Shown: piece by piece, positions 1-27,590 of the stretch | How the letters are laid out: every line of letters begins with the position of its first letter | How positions within the stretch are numbered: position 1 is the stretch's first letter | Assembly: GCA_964373795.1 (NCBI GenBank) | Contig: CAYJVY010000012.1 | Coordinates: 1-27,627, forward strand | DNA length: 27,627 bases | From: an uncultured archaeon | GTDB lineage: Archaea > Iainarchaeota > Iainarchaeia > Iainarchaeales > DATDZZ01 | Direction of reading: 5' to 3' | Program-made: the position numbers and the translations under genes | The notes under the pieces: generated by a model | Database searches by the model: none | What the model saw: only the letters and a program-made list of their open reading frames with translations | What the model was told of the DNA's origin: nothing

Positions 1-44
1 TAAAACAAAAAACTTGAAAGTCATTGAAAAAATAAGTTAGAAAA

Positions 45-704
45 CTATTTTGATACTTCAAGAAGTTCTTTTTGCACTTCTGCAACTGATTTAGTGTTAT
101 CCACAAAAATCCAGTTTCTTTTTCTTGCAATTTTTTTAAACCAAAAATCCATTTTCTTGTAAAGATCTAAAATTCTTTTTCTAGTGATTTTTTTCTTAGA
201 TTTTTTTTCAAAAAAAGAAAAAGACTTATTTTCTTGATGAAATCTTCTAAGGAAAGCCTGATTAACTGGAACATTTAAGTAAATAGTTTTATCAGGCAAA
301 ACTAAGGATTCTTCAAACAAATCTAAAAACAAGTCGGTTTTTCTTCCCAAAGCATATTCTCTTGCAAGCACTTTATAGAAATAACCATCATCAACTAATT
401 GCTTGTCAAGATTAATTAATGGCTTGATTTCAAATTCATTTAATTGCGCAAAACGAGTAAAAAAATAAGCCATTCTAGTAGTAGAAGAAACAGGCCAAAT
501 CTCTTTTTTTAAAAACTTAAAAGAAGAAGAAATATCTTTGTCAAGCTTTTTGTAAACCGCTATTTTTTTTGGAGAAATATATTTTTTATTAATTTTTCTA
601 AAATCCAATTTAATTAAGTCCAGGTTTTCAGCTAAAAGATTTGCTTGAGTTGTTTTTCCAGAGCCTTCCAATCCAACTATATTCAAAAAATTCCACTTAG
701 GCAT
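45..704 (-). CDS. P-loop nucleoside-monophosphate kinase, thymidylate-kinase-like
   Basis: This lies in ORF 45..770. The internal ATG at 704 gives MPKWNFLNIVGLEGSGKTTQANLLAENL, a dTMP-kinase-style N-terminal Walker A. The upstream 22 codons look like read-through of the promoter region. The canonical DRY motif is not seen (DDGYFYK instead), so this is a family-level call only. Stop is TAG at 45-47. Confidence 0.6.
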   Translation of the reverse strand: MPKWNFLNIVGLEGSGKTTQANLLAENLDLIKLDFRKINKKYISPKKIAVYKKLDKDISSSFKFLKKEIWPVSSTTRMAYFFTRFAQLNEFEIKPLINLDKQLVDDGYFYKVLAREYALGRKTDLFLDLFEESLVLPDKTIYLNVPVNQAFLRRFHQENKSFSFFEKKSKKKITRKRILDLYKKMDFWFKKIARKRNWIFVDNTKSVAEVQKELLEVSK

Positions 705-769
705 ACCAATAAAATTGTAAAAGGAAAAATGTAAAAATGATTGCAAACGGAGTGCTAAAGGCAAGTGCA

Positions 770-941
770 CCTGGTGCCTAAAATTTAGTGAACTTTTCCC
801 TCTAAAAAAATGAAAACCTGGTGCCTAAAAGAGGCGCATGGTGCCTAAAACTCCACATACATTATGCCTAAAACGCCGAGCAGCCGCGGCCGAGCACGCA
901 AAAAGTGTGAAGCCTGCGAAGCTAAAACCTGGTGCCTAAAA
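770..941. repeat. Intergenic array of five copies of the 14-nt core CCTGGTGCCTAAAA
   Basis: Exact copies are at 770-783, 817-830 and 928-941. Variants are CATGGTGCCTAAAA at 837-850 and CATTATGCCTAAAA at 860-873. Positions 837-873 form a 37-nt unit (core + CTCCACATA + core). Two solo cores are followed by GAGG(C/T)G. All copies have the same orientation. Confidence 0.85.
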
Positions 942-1023
942 GAGGTGTTTTAAAATTAAATGAAAACGCATCGACAATAAGTAAAACTTTGCACAAATTA
1001 ATTGCTTGAACTTGGATTGATTT

Positions 1024-1365
1024 TTATTCCCTAATTTTAACAGAATTTCTCCCAACTACAATAATTCTTTTTCTTAGGTTATCCATGGCAAATTTTTTTA
1101 CAAACCAAGCAAACAAATCTTCAACAGATCTTCTTTCCTGACTGCTTAGCCTTAGTAGAACTATTCCATGGTGAACATTAGATGGATAGTTCACTGGATT
1201 AGCAAATTCTTTATCAAGTGTCACAAGAACAAAACTATTTTCCCCACAATGTTTTGCAAGCTCTTTATCTGAAATTCCTTTCAAATTTTGGGAAAAAACA
1301 GTTGAAGAATTCTTGACCTATTTGGCTAAATTAATAGGAACATTTTCGTCAAACTTAAAATGCAT
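1024..1365 (-). pseudogene. DUF5615 / PIN-like (Mut7-C type) toxin interrupted by an in-frame TAG
   Basis: ATG at 1365 gives MHFKFDENVPINLAK, then TAG at 1318-1320. The same frame continues VKNSSTVFSQNLKGISDKELAKHCGENSFVLVTLDKEFANP...GIVLLRL to the stop at 1024. The ORF track only reports the TTG-initiated tail 1024..1284. The pattern F.FDENVP...L.G.SD.EL...VL.T.D.DF...G...LR matches DUF5615 proteins that follow DUF433 genes. Confidence 0.6.
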
Positions 1366-1394
1366 TTAAAATTCTCCTAAAAAAATAGTAGAAA

Positions 1395-1679
<285 letters not shown>

Positions 1680-1730
1680 CTACTATGCCATATGCTCTGC
1701 AGTAGTTCGCCGTTGGTGAAATAAAGCTAT

Positions 1731-1792
1731 AAAAAATAGTTTTCCTTTTTGCTTCGAACAAGTTTCCTTTTTTCAAAAAAGAAAAAGTTTTC
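1731..1792. repeat. AT-rich palindromic element E1 (homologue of 3781-3842), 3' of asnS
   Basis: The sequence AAAAAATAGTTTTCCTTTTTGCTTCGAACAAGTTTCCTTTTTTCAAAAAAGAAAAAGTTTTC aligns, by eye, at roughly four-fifths identity with 3782-3842. It has an imperfect hairpin and T-runs on the sense (minus) strand. Confidence 0.5.
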
Positions 1793-1888
1793 TTTTAGTA
1801 AAGCTTCCCAATTCAAAAAAATTTTGAATGAGTTCATTTTGCTTTTGCAAAATTGGATTCTTTTTAAGAAAAAAAATTTTGGTAAAGC

Positions 1889-1906
1889 TTTTTTTTAAAA
1901 AAAGGT
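1889..1906 (-). terminator. Oligo-T tract immediately after the asnS stop
   Basis: The minus strand reads TAA ACC TTTTTTT AAAAAAAA. A T7 run 3 nt after the stop is the usual archaeal intrinsic termination signal. Confidence 0.35.
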
Positions 1907-3199
1907 TTAAGGATAGAAGCGATTCATTGTTCTAGGAAAAGCAATTACATCTCTAATGTGTTCTAAACCCATTATCCATGTAAGCAGTCTTTCCAATCCA
2001 AGCCCTGCTCCTGAATGAGGAACTGATCCGTATTTTCTTAAATCCATGTACCATCCATAAGCATCTGGTTTCAAATTCTCTGCTTTCATTCTTGAAAGCA
2101 ATTCATCCATTGACTTGCATCTTTCTCCTGAGCCAATTATTTCTCCATATCCTTCTGGAGCTAAAACATCACAGCATAAAACTACTTTAGAGTTTTCTGG
2201 ATCAGGCCTGTGATAAAAAGGTTTTAAAGTTGCAGGATAATGTGTAACCATTATTGGCACTTCAAAGTCTTTAGTGATTTCTCTTTCTTCTTTTTCTCCT
2301 AAATCATCTCCCCATTTTAGTTCTGAAAACTTTTTTTGCGCAATTTCAAACACTTCATCATACTTAAATCTTTCAAATTTTTCTTCTACAACTCTTTCAA
2401 TTACTTTTGAATTTCTTCCAAAAAACTTCATTAAATCTTGAGCGTTTTCAAGCATTTCCTGGCAAACAGATTTCAATAATTTTTCATGAAAATTCAGTAA
2501 TTCAGGCAAGCCATCCCAAGCAGTTTCCCATTCAGCATGCTGAAATTCTGTTACATGTCTTCTAGTTCTAGAAGGCTCTGCTCTAAAAGACGGAGCAATA
2601 GTGTAAACCTTTTCAAGAGAAGTAATAAATGCCTCTAAATAAAATTGCGAAGACTGAGTTAAATAAACTTTTTTTCCAAAATATGGAACTTCAAATAAAG
2701 TTGAACCTCCTTCAACTGCTCCTGAAACAAAGCTAGGGCAATGCACTTCAACATATCCTTGTTTTTCCATGAAATTCCTAAAAGCTTGAAACAAAAAAGC
2801 CTTAGCTTTTAATGCTTTATTCATTCTAGTAGAACGAAGCCATAAATGTCTTACATCCAATAAAAAGTCTTCAGATAAATCTTTTTGAATTGGAAATTCT
2901 TGACCAAAATCAATTACTTGAATTTTTTTTAAAACCAATTCAACTCCTTGAGGAGCTCTTTCATCTTTTTTTAATTCTCCTTCAACATACAGGCTTGCCT
3001 CAATATTTGCTTTCTGCAAGTCAGCAAATTCTTTTTCTGAAACACTTCCCTTAGATGCAACGCATTGAATTTCATTTGAAGCATCTCTTAAAATAATAAA
3101 TAAATTATCTTTTCCTTCTCTTTTTCTTTTAATCCAACCCCTAATCAAAACACTTCCATTCTTGGAATTCAATGCGGACTCAACTGAAGAAAAATTCAT
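1907..3199 (-). CDS. asnS: Asparaginyl-tRNA synthetase (class IIb)
   Basis: The 430-aa product has an N-terminal OB anticodon-binding domain (VLIRGWIKRKREGKDNLFIILRDASNEIQCV). Motif 2 is FRAEPSRTRRHVTEFQHAEWE. The AsnRS hallmark C-terminus is WYMDLRKYGSVPHSGAGLGLERLLTWIMGLEHIRDVIAFPRT. GAGGT lies 8 nt upstream of the ATG at 3199. Confidence 0.92.
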   Translation of the reverse strand: MNFSSVESALNSKNGSVLIRGWIKRKREGKDNLFIILRDASNEIQCVASKGSVSEKEFADLQKANIEASLYVEGELKKDERAPQGVELVLKKIQVIDFGQEFPIQKDLSEDFLLDVRHLWLRSTRMNKALKAKAFLFQAFRNFMEKQGYVEVHCPSFVSGAVEGGSTLFEVPYFGKKVYLTQSSQFYLEAFITSLEKVYTIAPSFRAEPSRTRRHVTEFQHAEWETAWDGLPELLNFHEKLLKSVCQEMLENAQDLMKFFGRNSKVIERVVEEKFERFKYDEVFEIAQKKFSELKWGDDLGEKEEREITKDFEVPIMVTHYPATLKPFYHRPDPENSKVVLCCDVLAPEGYGEIIGSGERCKSMDELLSRMKAENLKPDAYGWYMDLRKYGSVPHSGAGLGLERLLTWIMGLEHIRDVIAFPRTMNRFYP

Positions 3200-3300
3200 T
3201 CTATTAACCTCTAAAACGAAAAACGTAAGTAAAATTCACATGCGTTAAATTTAAATTAGTTAATTCACCGCCCTGCCATATAAATCTTTGAAGCCAATGT

Positions 3301-3561
3301 TTACTTTTTTTTCCTTTTGATTTCCTCAATCAATCTCTCTAATTCCACATCAGCTTGGCCAAGCGAAGCAGGAGATCCATGCAACAGTTCAGTAACTTTT
3401 GCTAAAAGTCTTGCACTATCAGCTCTACTCATATTTGTCAAACCATGGCTTTTAACAATGGCTCTAAAATGCTGTTTTGGATCAAAGTGAGTTACATCTC
3501 TAAATGTAGGAAACCTCGCACTTGTTTTTCCAATATTTTTTGCCGGTTCTCTTTTTAACAT
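3301..3561 (-). CDS. Hypothetical small protein (86 aa)
   Basis: This lies in ORF 3301..3591. The internal ATG at 3561 is preceded by GGAGGAATTTT (Shine-Dalgarno-like GGAGG). The product MLKREPAKNIGKTSARFPTFRDVTHFDPKQHFRAIVKSHGLTNMSRADSARLLAKV... has no motif I recognise. Confidence 0.5.
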   Translation of the reverse strand: MLKREPAKNIGKTSARFPTFRDVTHFDPKQHFRAIVKSHGLTNMSRADSARLLAKVTELLHGSPASLGQADVELERLIEEIKRKKK

Positions 3562-3657
3562 AAAATTCCTCCAAAAAAAGGTAAATATCAAAATATATAA
3601 ATATTATAATGATTAATTAGAATTTATTCTTAACTCTTAAACTTTCAGAAAACACTT

Positions 3658-3764
3658 CCTGGTGCCTAAAACTCCACACACCTGGTGCCTAAAAGGTCAA
3701 ACAATTTACCGTCTCAAAAACTCAGAACCTAGTGCCTAAAACTCCACATACCTAGTGCCTAAAA
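3658..3764. repeat. Second array of the CCTGGTGCCTAAAA family (two 37-nt units)
   Basis: Unit 1 at 3658-3694 is CCTGGTGCCTAAAA-CTCCACACA-CCTGGTGCCTAAAA. Unit 2 at 3728-3764 is CCTAGTGCCTAAAA-CTCCACATA-CCTAGTGCCTAAAA. They are separated by 33 nt and have the same orientation as the array at 770-941. Confidence 0.85.
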
Positions 3765-3780
3765 AAAGTTTTTTCTAGAA

Positions 3781-3842
3781 AAAAAAATAGTTTTTTCTTT
3801 TGATTCGAAAAACTTTTCTTTTTATAAAAAGAAAAGTTTTTC
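3781..3842 (-). terminator. AT-rich palindromic element E2 overlapping the aspS stop codon
   Basis: Positions 3807-3842, GAAAAACTTTTCTTTTTATAAAAAGAAAAGTTTTTC, form a perfect 36-nt palindrome. The last 2 nt (3841-3842) belong to the aspS TGA stop (3841-3843). On the sense strand it is followed by T-runs (TTTTTC...ACTATTTTTTT). It is homologous to 1731-1792. Confidence 0.5.
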
Positions 3843-5671: not shown

Positions 5672-5821
5672 TCACTTGACCTGTTTTTTTAACCAATCTA
5701 TAACTGCTGGACCCAATAATGCCCCTAAAATAGCTCCGCCTGAACCAGCCATAACGCCGCCAGCAATAGCTCCAACTATTATTTTGCTTAATGTTTCTTG
5801 GTCTATGTCCGATTTTGCCAT
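5672..5821 (-). CDS. 49-aa glycine-zipper membrane peptide (below the ORF-track size cutoff)
   Basis: Hand translation gives MAKSDIDQETLSKIIVGAIAGGVMAGSGGAILGALLGPAVIDWLKKQVK followed by TGA. The ATG at 5821 lies 2 nt after the res stop (TAA AG ATG). The GxxxG/AxxxG zipper is typical of YmgE/GlsB-like peptides. Confidence 0.5.
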   Translation of the reverse strand: MAKSDIDQETLSKIIVGAIAGGVMAGSGGAILGALLGPAVIDWLKKQVK

Positions 5822-5823
5822 CT

Positions 5824-8799
5824 TTACCAACTCACACTTTTAGAGATGTCCTCAAAGCTGTCAAACCAGTATTTTTTGTATCCTTCTGAGAGTTTGTTTT
5901 TGTCTTCAGTGTACAAGAACAAGCATACATCTACTGCGTATTTGTCAAATTTGAATGTTTTTCGTTTTAATTTTTCTTCAAAAAGGAATTTGTAGCCGTC
6001 AACCTTATATTCATAGTCTGTATGGCTTGTTCCTTTTGGATCTGTAAATAATATCGTGTACTGGTTTCCTTTTTTTAGCCAGAAAATAAAGTCTGGCTTG
6101 AATTTCTCTATTTTATTGTGTGCTTTATTATAATATGGTAAATAAACCTCATCAGTATGTTCATCCAGTTTGCTGAACATCCACCAGTCGAACTGCGCCA
6201 AGAAATTGTTTTCTTTTTTCAAATAAACTTCAAGTTTCTCAATAAATCTTCGCTCGCTTTCCACACTAATAATGTGATTTATGTAATCTATTTTTTCTCT
6301 CGTTGAAAGAATTAAAGGAACATAATAATGATTGGCCACATTCTTTATTTTCAAGTCTTTAAATTCTTCTTCGCTTGAGCTTTTTGATAACTCTTTGATT
6401 TTTTTAGTGTATTCTTCAATGCTTATTTGTTTTTTCTCAAGCTTTTCTTTGAATTTTTCTTCTTCTTTTTCTGATGGAACAAACATTTTTACTTTCTCAA
6501 CAGCTTCCTTGAATTTCTCTAATTCGCTGTTTTCCAATGAAACCCTTATTTTTTTGAAGTGAATTATTTCATCCTCTAATTTCTTGAATTTATCAAGGTC
6601 TTGTAAGGTAATGTTTAGGTGGTCAACAAGTTTTTGCATTTGAATTGAAACATTTCTTGAACCATTTTCAATAAAACTGCCGTTCTCAACAAACTCTTTT
6701 GCCTCGCTAATGTGCTTTGGCTGAATTTCTCTTGCTTGCGATAACTGATTATAAATAATTTTTTCGTCTCCAAGCCAATTCAAATAGTCTTTTAACATTT
6801 GCCGGTTGCCTTCAAATTTTGGCAGTTCTGCAACAGCAACCATTTCTTTTCTGTCCTTATAAGTTGGGATAATAAGCTCTCTTTGTTTGGCGTCTATATT
6901 TTCTTCTAATTCAATTATTTCTCCCGCAGTTTTTCTTTCATACTTAATGCTTTCTAAAATCTTAGATACATTGGTTTTGCTTGTCCCAAAAACAAAAAGC
7001 GTTTCAATAAGCGACACAGCATAGTCATCAAGTTTAGAACACATTTCTTTTGCCAAATTTGTTTCTTTCTTTAATGGAATAAGCCTTTTTCTTTTTCCTT
7101 TAATTGGCTCAATTCTTACCCCTCTGCCAATTGATTGAGTAACATATTTTTTTGCGTCTCCGGTTCCAATGTTTATGAAAACCATTACATTTGGCCTGTT
7201 GCTGTCCCAGCCCTCATAAAAAGCCCTTGATCCCATCAAAATATTTACGTGATTGTCATCCTTGCTAATGCTTTTGAAAAAGCTTCTGTTTTCAAATGAC
7301 TCATTTATTTCATAGTTTTCAAGCTTTTCCTTTAACCAGGTTGTAATGTCTCCAATTTTGATTAATGCAAACGGCTGGTCAGAAGTCTTTAACTTGAAAA
7401 TGAGTTCTTCCCTGTTTGAAGGAATTTTTAGCACTTCAATTTTTCCAAAAGAAGACGCATTAAAAACCCATTTTAAAATGTCTTTTGCATCAATTTTTTC
7501 AATTAACTCTTTTTTTAGGATTAAGCTTTCGCTTCCAAACACAAACCTCGGGTGTTTTTCCAGTTCTTGAACAATCTCCTGCTTTGCTTTTTCCAATATT
7601 TCTTTATCAATGTCTCCTTTGGCAATGTTTTCTATTTCCTTAAAGAAAATTTCCAAATCTGAATCCTGAACATTTACAGAATTAACCAAAGAAACCATTA
7701 AAGGATTGTGATAAGCTGGATTTTGCAATTTTTTGTTAATTGTTTCCCTTGCCTTTTTTGCTATTGAAAGCAGGATTAGAGATTTTAGCACTATTTTTTG
7801 TTTTTCTTTGCTTTCAAAATAATCTTTTTGCTTAAAAACATTTAACTCTTGCTGTGAAAGATAAACATTCTTACCATATCCCTGCCTAATAAAGGCATCA
7901 AGGTTAAAGTTATAGATTGTTGTAAGAATATCCCACGCATCTGTAAAGGTTGCAGAAAAATTGAATATAAAACCGTTTCTTGTTAAAACAGAGTAATAAA
8001 TCTGCCTTTTTGAATCCTCTTTGTCTCCCTTATGCGCTTCATCAAGCAAAACATACCAATTGCCGTTGTTTTCAATATCTTCAAAGCTTAACAGCTTTTC
8101 CTTTGTTCTGTCTGAAATCAAGTCAGAGCGGTAAACAAAAACATTAATGTCTTCCTTGAATGAAAGCACTGTTCCTTTTTTTACTGAATCAAACTTTGTT
8201 AATTCCCACAATCTTATTTTTCTGTTTGCAAGCTTGTTAAATTCTTCAACGTGCTGTTTAATTTGCTCAATTAAATCTTCTCTATGAGTTAAAACCAGAA
8301 TGTCATTATCCGGGATTTGCTGGCCTCTTTTGAGTTTATCCAACAATTCAATTAGCTTTACTAAAATGATTGTTTTTCCTGAACCTGTTGCCATCCAGAA
8401 ACTCATTCTGTTAACAAAATTGTAAAAGTGAATCTTGTTATCATCAATTACTTTGTAGTATTCTTTTAGCTTGTTGAATAGTGCTTTGTTTCCTTTGCTT
8501 GTTATTCCAAGAGAATCAATCAGTTTGCCATCAAACCTTCTTGCTTCATTCAAAAGCTTTTTCTTTCTTTCAATGTTTGATAACTCGTTTTCTGTTTTGT
8601 TGTATTCTTGCAGTGAAACATAGTAATAGTGCAGGAAGTTTATTGCGTCTTTTATTGCTTCCTGCTGGTAATCAAAAAGCGAAATTTCTTTTGAGAAAGT
8701 GTTTAGTCTTGTGTCAATCCATTCTGATGGCAAGGTATTGAATTCTATTTCTTCAACCAAACCCTGAAAAATTAGCGGGATATTTTCTTTTTCAGCCAT
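5824..8799 (-). CDS. res: Type III restriction enzyme Res subunit (SF2 helicase plus C-terminal PD-(D/E)xK nuclease)
   Basis: Helicase motifs present: Q-like LFDYQQEAI, motif I MATGSGKT, motif II LLDEAHKG, motif III FSATF and motif VI QSIGRGVRI. The C-terminal nuclease signature is KPDFIFW...ILFTDPKG. The ATG at 8799 lies 2 nt after the mod TAG and is preceded by GGTGG. The ORF-track start at 8811 is a TTG overlapping mod. Confidence 0.9.
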   Translation of the reverse strand: MAEKENIPLIFQGLVEEIEFNTLPSEWIDTRLNTFSKEISLFDYQQEAIKDAINFLHYYYVSLQEYNKTENELSNIERKKKLLNEARRFDGKLIDSLGITSKGNKALFNKLKEYYKVIDDNKIHFYNFVNRMSFWMATGSGKTIILVKLIELLDKLKRGQQIPDNDILVLTHREDLIEQIKQHVEEFNKLANRKIRLWELTKFDSVKKGTVLSFKEDINVFVYRSDLISDRTKEKLLSFEDIENNGNWYVLLDEAHKGDKEDSKRQIYYSVLTRNGFIFNFSATFTDAWDILTTIYNFNLDAFIRQGYGKNVYLSQQELNVFKQKDYFESKEKQKIVLKSLILLSIAKKARETINKKLQNPAYHNPLMVSLVNSVNVQDSDLEIFFKEIENIAKGDIDKEILEKAKQEIVQELEKHPRFVFGSESLILKKELIEKIDAKDILKWVFNASSFGKIEVLKIPSNREELIFKLKTSDQPFALIKIGDITTWLKEKLENYEINESFENRSFFKSISKDDNHVNILMGSRAFYEGWDSNRPNVMVFINIGTGDAKKYVTQSIGRGVRIEPIKGKRKRLIPLKKETNLAKEMCSKLDDYAVSLIETLFVFGTSKTNVSKILESIKYERKTAGEIIELEENIDAKQRELIIPTYKDRKEMVAVAELPKFEGNRQMLKDYLNWLGDEKIIYNQLSQAREIQPKHISEAKEFVENGSFIENGSRNVSIQMQKLVDHLNITLQDLDKFKKLEDEIIHFKKIRVSLENSELEKFKEAVEKVKMFVPSEKEEEKFKEKLEKKQISIEEYTKKIKELSKSSSEEEFKDLKIKNVANHYYVPLILSTREKIDYINHIISVESERRFIEKLEVYLKKENNFLAQFDWWMFSKLDEHTDEVYLPYYNKAHNKIEKFKPDFIFWLKKGNQYTILFTDPKGTSHTDYEYKVDGYKFLFEEKLKRKTFKFDKYAVDVCLFLYTEDKNKLSEGYKKYWFDSFEDISKSVSW

Positions 8800-8801
8800 T
8801 G

Positions 8802-11288
8802 CTACCACCAAATCAATGGCCTAACCAAACCATAATCAAGCTTGTCAAACTCTATTTTTTCGTTTCCTTCCAAAACAACAAAACCTTTTCCAATTTTCTT
8901 AATCTTTTTTCCAGTTAAATTTGATATTGTTTCAGCTAAGTCAATGTTTGAATAAATCTTTGAAAAATCAACTTCAACCTTGTTCTTTTTGAAATCCAAT
9001 TCCATTGCTTTTAACAGCTTTTCATCTTTTAGGAAAACATACTGCTGGAAAATGCTTTTATCAGAAAAATCAGCAAAAGGATGACTCTCTTTATAAACAG
9101 CCTTCTTTAATGTTTGTTCGTATTGCTCTAAATCATAATACTTAAAGAAACCGCCACCATTCCAATTAACTTCTTTTGAAATACCTGATTTTTCTCCAGA
9201 CAAAACGCTTTTCATTCTCGGCAAAACAACAGAATCAAAATGCTCACCCATTTCAACGCCAAGCCATTTCCTACCAAGTTTATGGGCAACTGCTGTTGTT
9301 GTGCCACTGCCAAGGAAAAAGTCCATAACTAAATCTCCTTCATTGGAAGTGGATTCTATGACTCGTTTTAGGAGGGCTTCAGCATTCTCTGTCTGGAAGT
9401 CCCATCCAAAAGAATAACCCGGGATATCTGTCCAGTTAGAATCGATTTGTTTTTCTTCGGTGGGAGGTAAAAGGTATTCTACTCGTACTTTATTTTTATT
9501 TCCGCATTTTAAACAACCTTTCCAAGTTCCACTCGTATGTATATATCCGCAATTTTTACAAATCAATCTAATTTTTTGCTGTGCTTCCAATTCTCTAATT
9601 TTATTCTGTCCGTATGTCCAGTGCCTTCCTTCTGGTGGTTCGAACAAATAACCAAAAATATAAAGACCTTGCCCTTGCCCTTGCGAATCCATAGCATGCC
9701 ATCTTTCACTTTTTGCTTGTGTTAATTTTTTGAAAAGTAGATTAAATAAGAAGCTTTCATATTTAGAAAAAAGATAAAGCGAATCTGTAGCGGTATTAAA
9801 TTTCCTAACTTTAGGGTCTTGCTTGCTAATTCTACTAACAATTATTTCATTCCTAAAGTTTTCTTCTCCGAAGATGTTGTTTAACAACATTTTCACATAC
9901 ACATTTCCGTTGTAATCGCATCGGACAAATATGCTTCCTTTTTCGTTTAATAAATCTCTTGCTAAATTTATTCTGTTTTCAAGTAAGGTTATCCAGTTTG
10001 CATCTTTGTAATTTACGTTGTATAAGAAGTCTGCGTTTGTTCCTAAATTAAACGGTGGATCAATGTAAATTGTTTGTATTTGTTCTTGGAATTTTGGGAG
10101 AATGGTTTTTAGTGCTTGGTAGTTTTCTGAGTGAATTAACCAGCCGTCTAATTCGTTGTCTAAATCATCAAACAAAGAAAGCAATTCAAGTTTAATGTTT
10201 TCGTCAAAGTGCTTGGTGTCAATTGGCAAGTGCTCAAATTCTTTGTTTAAGCCCTTTCCGTTTAAATTATTAATCAGAATTTCATTTGGCTTAAAGTCTT
10301 TGCTTACAATTCCGAGTTCTTGCCATTCTTTTGCTTGCACTTCAAAGTTTTTGTGTTTTAAAATTTCTTGAATTAGCTTGTTTCCTTCTTTTTTCTTGGA
10401 AATTCTGTCCAAGGTAATTACATAGTTTGAGTTTAACACAAATTTTGGCTTGTTCCAGACTTTTACTAATTCATCTTCAAACTGTGCTACAAAGTCAATT
10501 GTCTTAAAGGCTATTTCTTTCAAAGCTTTTAACTCTTTTAATCTTCTTTCTTGGAAAAGGCTTTCTTCATCCATCAAATAGTTTTTAATCCATAAATCGA
10601 ATTGTTCTTTCAAAAACTTTTCAGCATTTTTGTTAATGAAAAAGTCCACTTCGTTTTGTTTTTCAAATATTCTGAAAATCCTAGTCAAGCCTTCTTCTTC
10701 AATAAAGACTTTTTTCTTTTTGAAGTCTTTTAAAACTTCATCTGTTTTTGTTTTTCTCCCTTTTTCAGAATAAAAAACATTGAAAGTGATTTCTTTTTCT
10801 TTCACGTTTTTTAATTCGTACATTATTTCTTTTTTCTCGTTTCCTTTTTTGTGTTCAAGCTTTGAAACATCAAAATGGATTTTATAAGAAATTCCATCTT
10901 CGTCAAAATCAATCGTCAAGTTTTTCCAAATTTTGTCACTTTTGACATAGTAAAGCATTTGAGTTTTCCAAAACAAGGCAACATCTTTGTTGTTAGTGTA
11001 AACCTGTTCATAAACTTTTGATTTCAGCGGAGTGTAGCTGAAGTAAATGCTTCCTGATTCAGAAAAATAGGTTTTAAAAAAAGAATATAATTTGTCAAAC
11101 ATTTCCTCTTTAAACTCGGGAAACTCTTTTGTTTTTCCTTCAATTTCTTTATTTAATTCCTTGAAAATTATATCAAAGTAAGCTGACTTCATTCTCATCA
11201 AATTAATAAAGCCAGAATCCCCTTCTATCTTGGCTCCAATGAAAATGTCTTTCAATTGGTCAAAAAACAATTTTTCTTTTTGAGTCAT
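8802..11288 (-). CDS. mod: Type III-like Mod DNA methyltransferase (N6A/N4C, beta-class motif order) with a long N-terminal extension
   Basis: Motif IV is IYIDPPFN at residues about 407-414. Motif I is DFFLGSGTTTAVAHKLGRKWLGVEM near the C-terminal third. A CxxC...CxxC zinc ribbon (CKNCGYIHTSGTWKGCLKCG) sits between them. The gene lies directly upstream of res with a 2-nt gap. Confidence 0.9.
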   Translation of the reverse strand: MTQKEKLFFDQLKDIFIGAKIEGDSGFINLMRMKSAYFDIIFKELNKEIEGKTKEFPEFKEEMFDKLYSFFKTYFSESGSIYFSYTPLKSKVYEQVYTNNKDVALFWKTQMLYYVKSDKIWKNLTIDFDEDGISYKIHFDVSKLEHKKGNEKKEIMYELKNVKEKEITFNVFYSEKGRKTKTDEVLKDFKKKKVFIEEEGLTRIFRIFEKQNEVDFFINKNAEKFLKEQFDLWIKNYLMDEESLFQERRLKELKALKEIAFKTIDFVAQFEDELVKVWNKPKFVLNSNYVITLDRISKKKEGNKLIQEILKHKNFEVQAKEWQELGIVSKDFKPNEILINNLNGKGLNKEFEHLPIDTKHFDENIKLELLSLFDDLDNELDGWLIHSENYQALKTILPKFQEQIQTIYIDPPFNLGTNADFLYNVNYKDANWITLLENRINLARDLLNEKGSIFVRCDYNGNVYVKMLLNNIFGEENFRNEIIVSRISKQDPKVRKFNTATDSLYLFSKYESFLFNLLFKKLTQAKSERWHAMDSQGQGQGLYIFGYLFEPPEGRHWTYGQNKIRELEAQQKIRLICKNCGYIHTSGTWKGCLKCGNKNKVRVEYLLPPTEEKQIDSNWTDIPGYSFGWDFQTENAEALLKRVIESTSNEGDLVMDFFLGSGTTTAVAHKLGRKWLGVEMGEHFDSVVLPRMKSVLSGEKSGISKEVNWNGGGFFKYYDLEQYEQTLKKAVYKESHPFADFSDKSIFQQYVFLKDEKLLKAMELDFKKNKVEVDFSKIYSNIDLAETISNLTGKKIKKIGKGFVVLEGNEKIEFDKLDYGLVRPLIWW

Positions 11289-12125: not shown

Positions 12126-12314
12126 TTAAATTTCCAATATCTTCCAGCTACTCAAATCGTTTGGATTGTATTCATATTTTTCTTGGTCGTTGTAGCGCCA
12201 AGTACCGTTTACATAAATGGCTATTCCACCCCAGAGCTTTTTCCCTTTCTTGTTTTGTTCTTTAATATACTTTTGCAGCCCCTCTGCTCTTGGTCTAGCA
12301 TCCTTTGCTGTCAT
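12126..12314 (-). CDS. Hypothetical small protein (62 aa)
   Basis: ORF MTAKDARPRAEGLQKYIKEQNKKGKKLWGGIAIYVNGTWRY... Its ATG overlaps the TGA of an upstream 43-codon ORF (ATGA). No family was recognised. Confidence 0.4.
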   Translation of the reverse strand: MTAKDARPRAEGLQKYIKEQNKKGKKLWGGIAIYVNGTWRYNDQEKYEYNPNDLSSWKILEI

Positions 12315-12442
12315 CCCACTTTTCGTGTCGAATAAGCCGATGGTTCCACCTTGAGTTGAGTATCCCTAATAAAAGACTCTATTAATCTTTTTGGAATTCT
12401 AGTGTGAGGATCAATTAGTCTTACTGTAATTTTTCCAGTCAT
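12311..12442 (-). CDS. Hypothetical 43-aa ORF
   Basis: Hand translation gives MTGKITVRLIDPHTRIPKRLIESFIRDTQLKVEPSAYSTRKVG. It is the first ORF downstream of tRNA-Asn and is stop/start-coupled to the next ORF. Support is weak because of its size. Confidence 0.3.
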   Translation of the reverse strand: MTGKITVRLIDPHTRIPKRLIESFIRDTQLKVEPSAYSTRKVG

Positions 12443-12490
12443 AAAATAACTAATTCCTTTTAGATTAATAAATTATCTTTTTTTAAGAAA

Positions 12491-12564
12491 CTGGGGGAGA
12501 GAGATTCGAACTCCCGCCATCCGAGTTAACAGCCCGGTATCCTAAACCGCTAGACTATCCCCCT
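12491..12564 (-). tRNA. tRNA-Asn (anticodon GUU), no encoded CCA
   Basis: The reverse complement is AGGGGGAUAGUCUAGCGGUUUAGGAUACCGGGCUGUUAACUCGGAUGGCGGGAGUUCGAAUCUCUCUCCCCCAG. It folds as a cloverleaf with anticodon stem CCGGG/CUCGG, loop CUGUUAA, T arm GGGAG-UUCGAAU-CUCUC and discriminator G73 (as expected for Asn). It is followed by TTTCTT. Position 1:72 reads A:A. Confidence 0.9.
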
Positions 12565-12768
12565 AAATTTTTGAATATGTTTTTTTCACTAGAAAAAACA
12601 CTAAAAAGTTAACAAAAACCTAAAACGTTTAATTGGCCTACCTAGAAGCTTCTAGTGAGTATCCAGAATATATGTAATTCCGGCTTAATAAACTTTTTTA
12701 CAATAAAATCGATGAAAATACGATAAAAATGCAGTATATTTAATAATATTTCGGACAATTTACGTATT

Positions 12769-15129: not shown

Positions 15130-15182
15130 TGAAATATTTTGAAATCAATACATTTAAATATATTATTATCTAAATATATGTC

Positions 15183-15419
15183 ATGGGCACCATAACATTA
15201 AATGTAAAAGATAAAACTGAGGAAAAGTTTAGAAAAGCCGCAGCAATAATTTTTGGCGAAGGAAAAGGCAGCTTAGGAAAAGCTGCAATGATGGCTTTTG
15301 AACAGTGGGCTGACAGACATACAAAAGGGAATGAAACCAAAATGCTCGAATTATTAGATAAGGGATTTAAGCTTGGCAAGCTTAAATACCATTCAAGGGA
15401 AGAACTGCATGAACGATGA
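15183..15419 (+). CDS. RHH-type antitoxin (VapB-like)
   Basis: The 78-aa product has an MGTITLNVKDKTEEKFRKAAA...AAMMAFEQWADRH strand-helix-helix layout. It overlaps the downstream PIN gene by 11 nt. Confidence 0.7.
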   Translation: MGTITLNVKDKTEEKFRKAAAIIFGEGKGSLGKAAMMAFEQWADRHTKGNETKMLELLDKGFKLGKLKYHSREELHER

Positions 15420-15843
15420 ATTCTTTGTTGATACAAATATTTTGGTTTATGCATTTGATGTTTCAGAAAAACAAAAACGTCAAATTGCAAAAAACATTGT
15501 TGAAGACATTACAAAGGGCAGGAAAAAAGGAGTAATTTCTAATCAAATACTTGGAGAACTTTTCATTGTTCTTACAAACAAAATTACAAATCCTTTAAAT
15601 GAAGAAAATGCACAAATAATAGTTAATGGAATCATTGACTCTGTAAACTGGAAAAAAGTAAATTACACTACTAGCACTATACATCAAGCTATGGACACAG
15701 TGATTAAAGAAAAAAGACCTTTTTGGGACACAATAATAACAGAAACAATGTTGGAAAACAAAATTTACGTAATATTAACTGAAAATACAAAGGACTTCAA
15801 GTCTAAAAATATAACAGCACATAATCCTTTCAAAAATGATTAG
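15409..15843 (+). CDS. vapC: PIN-domain ribonuclease toxin (VapC-like)
   Basis: MNDEFFVDTNILVYAF carries the first acidic PIN residue in the FVDTN context. Downstream are ...ISNQILGELF... and ...TENTKDF. The ATG at 15409 was chosen over the ORF-track start at 15373 because it gives the canonical N-terminus and antitoxin overlap. Confidence 0.85.
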   Translation: MNDEFFVDTNILVYAFDVSEKQKRQIAKNIVEDITKGRKKGVISNQILGELFIVLTNKITNPLNEENAQIIVNGIIDSVNWKKVNYTTSTIHQAMDTVIKEKRPFWDTIITETMLENKIYVILTENTKDFKSKNITAHNPFKND

Positions 15844-22594: not shown

Positions 22595-22671
22595 TAAACC
22601 CCAACCAATAAATAAAACAATTAATTATGAATTATGCTTTAAATATAACAAAGTTTTATTTAATAAAATTA

Positions 22672-22850
22672 TCGTGCGCCGTTCAGCCGCGCAAGGTTCA
22701 GCCCTTGAAGCTGAAGGGTCACGTGACCCCTCATGCTCGACGCACGAGACGTCGCAGCTGACAAGGCTGAGTGTTCGTGTGGGCATTGCGCTTGCCGCGC
22801 GAGACTACAGCTGAAGGCCTATGAAGGCACTCACCTAACATGGCGACATG
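22672..22850 (-). ncRNA. GC-rich structured element, copy A (unclassified candidate ncRNA or repeat)
   Basis: This is a sharp GC-rich block in AT-rich surroundings with no convincing ORF. It has a perfect palindrome GGGTCACGTGACCC at 22716-22729. The 15-mer at 22736-22750 is the exact reverse complement of 27475-27489. The strand was chosen because a G:U pair extends the hairpin only in this reading. Confidence 0.4.
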
Positions 22851-22869
22851 ATTCCTAAAAAAAGAGCCA

Positions 22870-27396: not shown

Positions 27397-27590
27397 TCGC
27401 TGTCAAGTGTGACATGTGTGATGTCAAATCACGCATGACAGGTGTGAAGTCAAGTCTCGCACCTTGAACGCGATGTCTCGTGCGTCGAGTGCGAGGGCCG
27501 ACGTCGGCCTTCAGCCTCGCCGGCTGATCGCCTCAGCTTCGCCGGCTGAACGCGCTTCAAGGGCCGAGTATTGTTCAAGGGAAATTTGCT
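27397..27590 (+). ncRNA. GC-rich structured element, copy B (homologue of 22672-22850 in opposite orientation)
   Basis: It has the 15-mer GTCTCGTGCGTCGAG at 27475-27489. The perfect palindrome GGCCGACGTCGGCC is at 27496-27509, flanked by GAGG and TTCAGC as in copy A. A closing helix pairs 27462-27472 with 27551-27562. CGCCGGCTGA(T/A)CGC is duplicated. It is GC-rich against an AT-rich flank. Confidence 0.4.

Follow-up and report, generated by a model that had tools for sequence, protein, structure and literature searches.

Two diverged, mutually inverted GC-rich hairpin elements in an AT-rich, probably archaeal contig, tentatively read as genes for a lineage-specific structured small RNA

In AT-rich genomes, structural RNA genes reportedly stand out as GC-rich islands, a classic hallmark, as in the work of Klein, Misulovin and Eddy from 2002 on GC-rich archaeal RNA genes. 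To our knowledge, almost nothing has been described about the non-coding RNAs of small, AT-rich, uncultured archaea. GC-rich, hairpin-forming elements are also described outside this setting. REP/REPIN-RAYT systems are bacterial and consist of short, GC-rich extragenic palindromes that keep their hairpin between diverged copies, number tens to hundreds of near-identical copies alongside a gene for the Y1 (HUH) RAYT transposase that mobilises them, and in the case of REPINs bring two inverted arms together into a hairpin of about 100 nt (PMC3116915; PMC3337134). The mobile GC clusters of yeast mitochondria are numerous eukaryotic-organellar modules of 30-60 bp, palindromic and GC-rich within very AT-rich DNA, that fall into subfamilies and undergo local duplication (PMC4478555). 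In the AT-rich genome of Plasmodium falciparum, GC-rich RUF6 elements of about 135 nt lie beside large variant surface-protein genes (PMC5175341). Finally, replication template switching can create or maintain hairpins and leaves clustered, exactly mirrored substitutions in the arms of perfect hairpins, for which no selection is needed (PMC8794818).

The window, the whole stretch of 27,627 nucleotides analysed here, has a background GC content of 0.32 and contains two GC-rich islands, copy A at 22666-22860 (minus strand, the strand homologous to B) and copy B at 27397-27590 (plus strand). The two lie 4.7 kb apart and are mutually inverted, and the reverse complement of A aligns to B. GC content is 0.52-0.65 in island A and 0.55-0.72 in island B. 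When 60-nt windows with a GC content of at least 0.5 are sought, they fall in the tRNA-Asn gene, in short stretches at 831-940, 5701-5780, 9371-9430 and 12271-12350, and in only two long islands, A and B. The tRNA gene has a GC content of 0.58, and because the islands match it within a contig of 32% GC and resist AT pressure, they favour an RNA reading. Folded as RNA, the whole of island B reaches -87.8 kcal/mol (z = -4.1). Our tentative preference, with somewhat less than even confidence, is that A and B encode a structured small RNA confined to this lineage, as two paralogous genes that diverged long ago; this would be a credible, if unproven, new family.

Among the described systems, the islands resemble the RNA genes of Klein, Misulovin and Eddy (the Hgc families of Rfam). 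They likewise form sharp intergenic GC islands of 100-200 nt in an AT-rich genome of archaeal type, contain several hairpins, occur in more than one copy and have folds more stable than shuffled sequence. They differ in that no Rfam model, Hgc included, reaches E = 0.1, that the host is not a known thermophile, and that the elements are so far known from sequence alone. With REPs and REPINs they share the GC-rich extragenic palindrome and the hairpin kept between diverged copies, but here there are two diverged copies, no RAYT in the window and an archaeal-looking host. The likeness to yeast GC clusters extends to palindromic modules and local duplications; no sequence relationship exists, and mobility of the present elements is hypothetical. 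RUF6 offers a parallel in length, composition and, for A, a large surface-protein neighbour, which is known for that copy only; the two are unrelated in sequence, and we treat the parallel as an analogy and not as membership.

The feature that ties A to B most firmly is an exact 15-mer, GTCTCGTGCGTCGAG, at 22736-22750 (minus) in A and at 27475-27489 (plus) in B. The initial annotation had reported this match, and it holds: none is expected by chance, and zero shuffles reproduced it. The 15-mer grows to a 20-mer with one transition between the copies. Also confirmed in both copies are GAGG on the 5' side and CCTTCAGC on the 3' side of the central hairpin, as well as two common blocks, GCTTCAAGGGC (11 nt) and CGGCTGAACG (10 nt), whose order is reversed between A and B. 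The alignable core spans about 90-110 nt at roughly 65-77% identity (77% in MAFFT columns), and the 5' domains of the two copies permit no alignment. The 5' domain of A (22765-22860, not assigned to a strand) contains a second GGCCTTCAGC word and a AGTCTCGC word common to B, and the elements as a whole are assembled from short inverted words, GGCTGAA/TTCAGCC and TTCAAGG/CCTTGAA. In its 5' domain, B carries a 26-nt tandem duplication (TGACAKGTGTGAWGTCAARTCWCGCA; 27410-27461, plus; Tandem Repeats Finder period 26, 2 copies, 84% matched), overlapped by a hairpin at 27400-27441 in which an inverted repeat pairs 27400-27412 with 27429-27441. A supposed insertion of about 35 nt in B proved instead to be a 22-nt tandem duplication of hairpin 3 (27511-27553, 90% matched in Tandem Repeats Finder), and the 26-nt and 22-nt duplications together point to repeated replication slippage in this copy. 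As a separate observation, the 15-mer of A can form 10 bp with the 3' tail of the element (22672-22681 with 22738-22747), and a similar complement of the 15-mer in B sits 5' of the core at 27431-27438. Either an alternative fold or mere chance in GC-rich sequence could account for such pairing.

Read as DNA, the 20-nt inverted repeat GAYGTCTCGTGCGTCGAG could mark the crossover sites of a site-specific recombinase, in which case the 4.7-kb segment 22751-27474 would be an inverton or shufflon. The repeat has one mismatch, its halves lie 4.7 kb apart and flank five genes, and the neighbouring giant surface protein is a typical target of phase variation. We nevertheless consider this most unlikely. 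The window contains no recombinase, the contig and the Logan assembly have the same orientation, and the conserved hairpins around the repeat are left unexplained. In addition, the Logan contig L001 passes the repeat by 32 nt at B and, at A, begins 40 nt inside it, and these are not the branch points that a crossover in the 20-nt repeat would give.

On an unguided alignment, three adjacent hairpins are paired throughout in both copies. Hairpin 1, which contains the 15-mer, is CUCGUGC-GUCGA-GCAUGAG in A (22730-22748, minus; seven pairs, one G-U) and CUCGUGC-GUCGA-GUGCGAG in B (27477-27495, plus; seven pairs, two G-U). Its 5' arm, within the 15-mer, is unchanged between the copies, and its 3' arm differs at three consecutive bases, CAU in A against UGC in B, all of which remain paired through G-U or G-C. 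Hairpin 2 is a perfect 14-nt palindrome in both copies, GGGUC-ACGU-GACCC in A (GGGTCACGTGACCC; 22716-22729, minus) and GGCCG-ACGU-CGGCC in B (GGCCGACGTCGGCC; 27496-27509, plus; extendable by GAG/UUC). The initial annotation had described mirrored changes in this central hairpin and further pairing in its flanks, and both are present: three positions on each arm have changed, all of them to complementary bases and with no pair broken, and the flanking GAG...TTC adds G-U, A-U and G-C pairs. Hairpin 3 is UCAGCU-UCAAG-GGCUGA in A (22698-22714, minus; six pairs) and occurs in B as two tandem 22-nt units of UCAGCY-UCGCC-GGCUGA (27511-27554, plus; Tandem Repeats Finder period 22, and recovered in the folds), with a U-G pair in A at one position where B has C-G.

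An unguided MAFFT alignment places 18 pairs in the three helices, and all 18 form in both copies (36 of 36 cells). Three of them differ in both partners, and four differ in one partner only and pair through G-U; when the pairing register is slid, just 36-51% of cells are paired. Under a structure-guided alignment there are 29 pairs, none broken and 8 changed on both sides, the extra compensations hinging on that alignment. With n = 2 sequences the shuffle control has a floor of 50/500, which places covariation beyond statistical testing of the R-scape type. Perfect helices in both copies at about 65-77% identity argue that each locus is under constraint and is not a decaying insertion, and an RNA is further favoured because several changes are tolerated only through G-U pairing on one strand.

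The mirrored changes of hairpin 2 can also be read without any selection. A replication template switch in a quasi-palindrome could have remade one arm from its partner, with the islands as functionless GC-rich remnants, and the three changes (GTC to CCG) are adjacent and exactly mirrored, as a single such event predicts (PMC8794818); products of slippage, the two tandem duplications, lie nearby. The initial claim that kept pairing with changed sequence signals a structure under selection is sound for the central hairpin, and by way of G-U pairs for hairpin 1, but was overstated in strength, as it compares two copies and as one template-switch event could suffice for hairpin 2. That sufficiency equally weakens the case for an RNA (PMC8794818), and it carries a more general caution: perfectly mirrored changes resemble covariation, and two sequences cannot tell selection from template-switch mutation. 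As an account of the elements as a whole, neutral template switching seems to us quite improbable. It predicts Watson-Crick mirroring only, whereas hairpins 1 and 3 are kept through one-arm G-U wobble changes, and it accounts neither for an exact 15-mer amid roughly 65-77% identity nor for the persistence of GC islands under strong AT pressure.

The pairing also depends on the strand. The initial annotation had noted a G-U pair available in one orientation only, and consensus folds compared on both strands bear the asymmetry out, with -44.5 kcal/mol on B(+)/A(-) against -30.0 kcal/mol on the opposite strand, where 8 consensus cells turn into A-C mismatches (structure-guided alignment). Each core taken alone is 6-8 kcal/mol more stable on B(+)/A(-), and the G-U pairing of hairpin 1 works on that strand only. 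Because G-U pairing holds on one strand only, these results suggest a single-stranded structure, most simply an RNA read from B(+)/A(-). The preference has its limits: the main hairpin of the A 5' domain (22765-22812) reaches -33.7 kcal/mol on the plus strand against -24.7 kcal/mol on the minus strand, opposite to the core, and whole-island z-scores show no separation between strands. Both results weaken the RNA reading.

Beyond the three hairpins, B closes on itself through a long-range helix in which UGAAGUCAAGUCUCGCACCUUGAACGCG (27445-27472, plus) pairs with the inverted repeat CGCGCUUCAAGGGCCGAGUAUUGUUCA (27551-27577, plus) in the minimum-energy and centroid folds alike. The duplex has an energy of -26.2 kcal/mol, equalled by 1 of 1000 shuffles. 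In A, the RNA fold joins UCAGCUGC (22754-22761) to GCGGCUGA (22683-22690) on the minus strand, enclosing 22683-22761, and 80 of 1000 shuffles do as well, which makes this helix marginal. A closing helix conserved between the copies, as first proposed, is convincing for B and weak for A, and its conservation rests on the structure-guided alignment. The CCTTG:CAAGG helix originally drawn for A appears only in a fold with DNA parameters, and the RNA minimum-energy fold uses the pairing just described instead. Against shuffled sequence, the core folds have z = -3.9 (B) and z = -3.6 (A). Both copies can also adopt an alternative fold in which GAYGU pairs with GCGUC and hairpin 2 is lengthened via GAGG/CUUC; this fold is incompatible with hairpin 1, and two mutually exclusive folds in both copies make a conformational switch conceivable.

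Taken as a whole, B approximates a single long imperfect palindrome of 133 nt with mutually paired arms of about 28 nt, in the manner of a REPIN (1/1000 shuffles, as against 80/1000 for A). This palindrome is among the points in favour of the main rival explanation, a selfish, non-autonomous, GC-rich palindromic repeat resembling a MITE, a REPIN or a yeast-mitochondrial "GC cluster", which we regard as possible though on balance unlikely. The DNA hairpin would then be mobilised by an enzyme encoded elsewhere that recognises the hairpins and the 15-mer, and A and B would represent diverged subfamilies. Two inverted intergenic copies within 5 kb fit such an origin, as do the short inverted words, the local tandem duplications and a family seemingly limited to this lineage, and mobile palindromes of high GC content have precedents in AT-rich genomes (PMC4478555; REPINs, PMC3116915). 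More broadly, the loose architecture of the elements, with two tandem duplications, swapped blocks and self-complementary words, suits non-functional or selfish palindromic DNA as well as RNA. Contigs of the Logan assembly (k = 31; ERR3478686) stop inside both cores, at 22702, 22790 and 27521, as further repeats elsewhere would cause, but the breaks are equally explicable by a drop in coverage in GC-rich hairpin DNA. The NCBI contig spans both cores, and we treat these ends as uninformative.

Several observations stand against a selfish repeat. First, the open reading frames of the window include no transposase, RAYT or integrase, no target-site duplication was seen, and the terminal pairing of A is not significant (80/1000). 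Second, a covariance model trained on A and B retrieved only these two and their antisense strands from the 27.6-kb window, with no third copy or fragment. Third, strong divergence with zero broken pairs is unexpected for neutrally decaying insertions, and a double-stranded cruciform needs no G-U pairing on one strand. If the elements do prove to be selfish palindromic repeats, they would extend REPIN- and GC-cluster-like elements to this archaeal group.

Under the explanation we prefer, two paralogous RNA genes, the RNA would have a core of about 90-135 nt within an island of up to about 190 nt (predicted ends). Transcription would use the minus strand at A and the plus strand at B, so that both genes face away from the intervening 4.5 kb. 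Three adjacent hairpins would be enclosed by the long-range closing helix: hairpin 1 with arms CUCGUGC and GYRYGAG around a GUCGA loop, hairpin 2 with 5 bp and an ACGU loop, and hairpin 3 with arms UCAGCY and GGCUGA. The invariant 15-nt segment, as 5' arm and loop of hairpin 1, would be the working part, probably recognised by its sequence through a protein or a complementary nucleic acid, and a pairing partner, if there is one, would be complementary to GUCUCGUGCGUCGAG. The other helices would serve as a scaffold, variable provided that pairing persists, and the combination of an invariant segment riding on a variable scaffold also favours an RNA. The initial annotation had argued that the structure speaks against a simple protein-binding sequence. 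This part we do not uphold, since the exact 15-mer constrains sequence besides structure and is compatible with binding of a protein or of a complementary nucleic acid. A real RNA would constitute a new family in that archaeal group, and the invariant 15-nt segment on its pairing-conserving variable scaffold would provide an experimental handle. Counting against an RNA are the small number of copies (just two), the absence of a homologue in the other genomes scanned by exact motif and of any Rfam match, the lack of a clear promoter or terminator, and the very small distance from the methyltransferase stop codon to A.

The genomic setting bears on how the elements might be expressed. Read as RNA, A lies downstream of a methyltransferase gene and after a T7 run, with a very short gap between the methyltransferase stop codon and the element. 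Its 3' end (about 22670) is about 75 nt from the ATG (22594) of the gene for a 2222-aa surface protein on the same strand. B lies downstream of a 159-aa open reading frame, from which a T-rich hairpin and 150 nt of AT-rich spacer separate it, and the window ends 37 nt past B. On its own strand, each element comes after the oligo-T run with which the upstream gene closes, and this would fit a separate transcription unit. Read as A(-)/B(+), both elements point away from the intervening 4.5-kb block, which encodes the methyltransferase, a double-HTH Lrp-like regulator, an MBL-fold exonuclease-like protein, a Yip1-like membrane protein and the 159-aa open reading frame; the block is unshifted in composition and contains neither a transposase nor a recombinase. 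A single-sequence AlphaFold model of the 159-aa protein has a mean pLDDT of 45 and is unusable.

This arrangement raises the alternative, which we judge improbable, that each element acts in cis on its downstream gene, either as an RNA leader or as a regulatory DNA module; that gene would be the one for the 2222-aa protein in the case of A and one beyond the window in the case of B. Such a role would agree with the short distance between A and the ATG on the same strand, with the outward direction of both copies, with two exclusive folds followed by T-rich sequence, as in an attenuator, and, by analogy only, with the GC-rich RUF6 RNAs beside the var surface-antigen genes of AT-rich Plasmodium (PMC5175341). 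A TATA-like AT-rich stretch between A and the ATG speaks against it, as this suggests that the gene for the surface protein is probably served by a separate promoter located downstream of A. Any gene that B precedes lies outside the window, which stops 37 nt after the element, and no comparable element occurs near the distant homologues of the surface protein. A more far-reaching proposal, which we hold to be highly doubtful, is that the islands are the first members of a family of GC-rich structured RNAs, archaeal (DPANN-type) and so far undescribed, that sits beside giant surface-protein genes and controls their expression or rearrangement via the 15-nt segment. If true, it would amount to a prokaryotic counterpart of the RUF6/var arrangement of Plasmodium or to a hairpin-guided DNA switch.

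Searches for relatives covered known families, genomes, metagenomes and proteins. At the gathering threshold, Rfam 15 found only the tRNA in the whole window, and with E up to 10 the best matches to either element (E = 0.18-0.9, Hgc families included) were unrelated and far under gathering. ARAGORN reported only tRNA-Asn at 12490-12566, and no tRNA, tmRNA or split tRNA half in the elements. The 15-mer followed by NNNGAG(G) gave 22 matches in JGI metagenome contigs and 44 in 596 Gb of GTDB genomes, all of them chance matches inside overwhelmingly bacterial sequence of 50-77% GC and without likeness to the elements beyond the motif. In viral contigs a three-block pattern had 0 matches and the bare 15-mer only chance matches, and distant-mode blastn with both elements gave no meaningful match in plasmids. 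Contigs encoding distant homologues of the 2222-aa protein contained neither GC islands nor covariance-model matches. A coding function had been thought unlikely, and this agrees with our results, as the 22-nt and 26-nt indels shift the frame. One frame is open in A and B alike, and its profile had 0 matches among 1.84 billion representative proteins. Among eight open frames Pfam returned nothing credible and only a single match below threshold, to EGF_integrin (E = 6e-4; 20 bits, where the cut-off is 27), in a spurious 41-aa frame.

Known mobile-element ends and other described element types were considered in turn. The initial annotation had allowed that the region might be the terminus of a known mobile element, and nothing for this was found among the window neighbours, in Rfam or in terminal features. 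As a MITE, neither copy is flanked by a target-site duplication or direct repeat, and B has imperfect terminal inverted repeats; outside the A-B block there is a single chance-level 8-mer, AAAGTTTT. Ends of IS200/IS605 elements and TnpB/IscB guide RNAs were rejected, with no adjacent tnpA, tnpB or iscB and no match to the Rfam HEARO model; the neighbours are a methyltransferase, the surface protein and the 159-aa protein, which lacks an HUH motif. An integron attC site was set aside, as neither element has RYYYAAC...GTTRRRY boxes at its foot and the two copies face opposite ways, unlike cassettes arrayed in one orientation. The template and variable repeats of a diversity-generating retroelement were likewise set aside, as the substitutions are not confined to adenines (G to C, T to C and C to G also occur) and no reverse transcriptase domain is found in the window. 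Archaeal C/D or H/ACA guide RNAs would call for a C box near the 5' end or an ACA past the closing helix, neither of which is present, and the Rfam snoRNA models were silent. Origin recognition boxes were discarded, the GC skew having no turning point, and hammerhead and twister ribozymes were also considered and rejected.

The window, part of a 35,769-nt NCBI contig, probably comes from a DPANN-type archaeon. It encodes a non-discriminating AspRS of archaeal type, an AsnRS, three Lrp/AsnC regulators, a CARDB protein and PIN toxins, together with a Type III restriction-modification system and the 2222-aa surface protein, which is rich in Ig-like domains. Genes for defence and addiction cluster at 1024-1637, 5824-11288 and 15170-15843 and comprise a DUF433/DUF5615 pair, Type III Res and Mod, and a PIN-domain toxin preceded by a small open reading frame. 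At 12126-12442 (minus), two abutting open reading frame fragments of 43 and 62 aa with raised local GC adjoin tRNA-Asn (minus strand) and may represent a broken gene; a Logan contig ends at 12366. Exact look-ups with proteins of the window retrieved just short Logan contigs from the same population. This population is represented, at 99.8-99.9% identity, in Logan assemblies for both ERR3478686 and ERR4904391, and two independent runs compared with positions 1-3786 of the window show 2-8 SNPs per 3.5 kb, indicating strain-level variation. Finally, a motif, (CCT)GGTGCCTAAAA, occurs in 8 copies, all on the plus strand, in two intergenic clusters (773-941 and 3661-3764) near the AsnRS, AspRS and thymidylate-kinase genes, with 9 matches against 0.65 expected. 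The clusters match no Rfam family; the first surrounds a 50-nt GC-rich stretch at 875-925, and one Logan contig begins within the second, at 3678.
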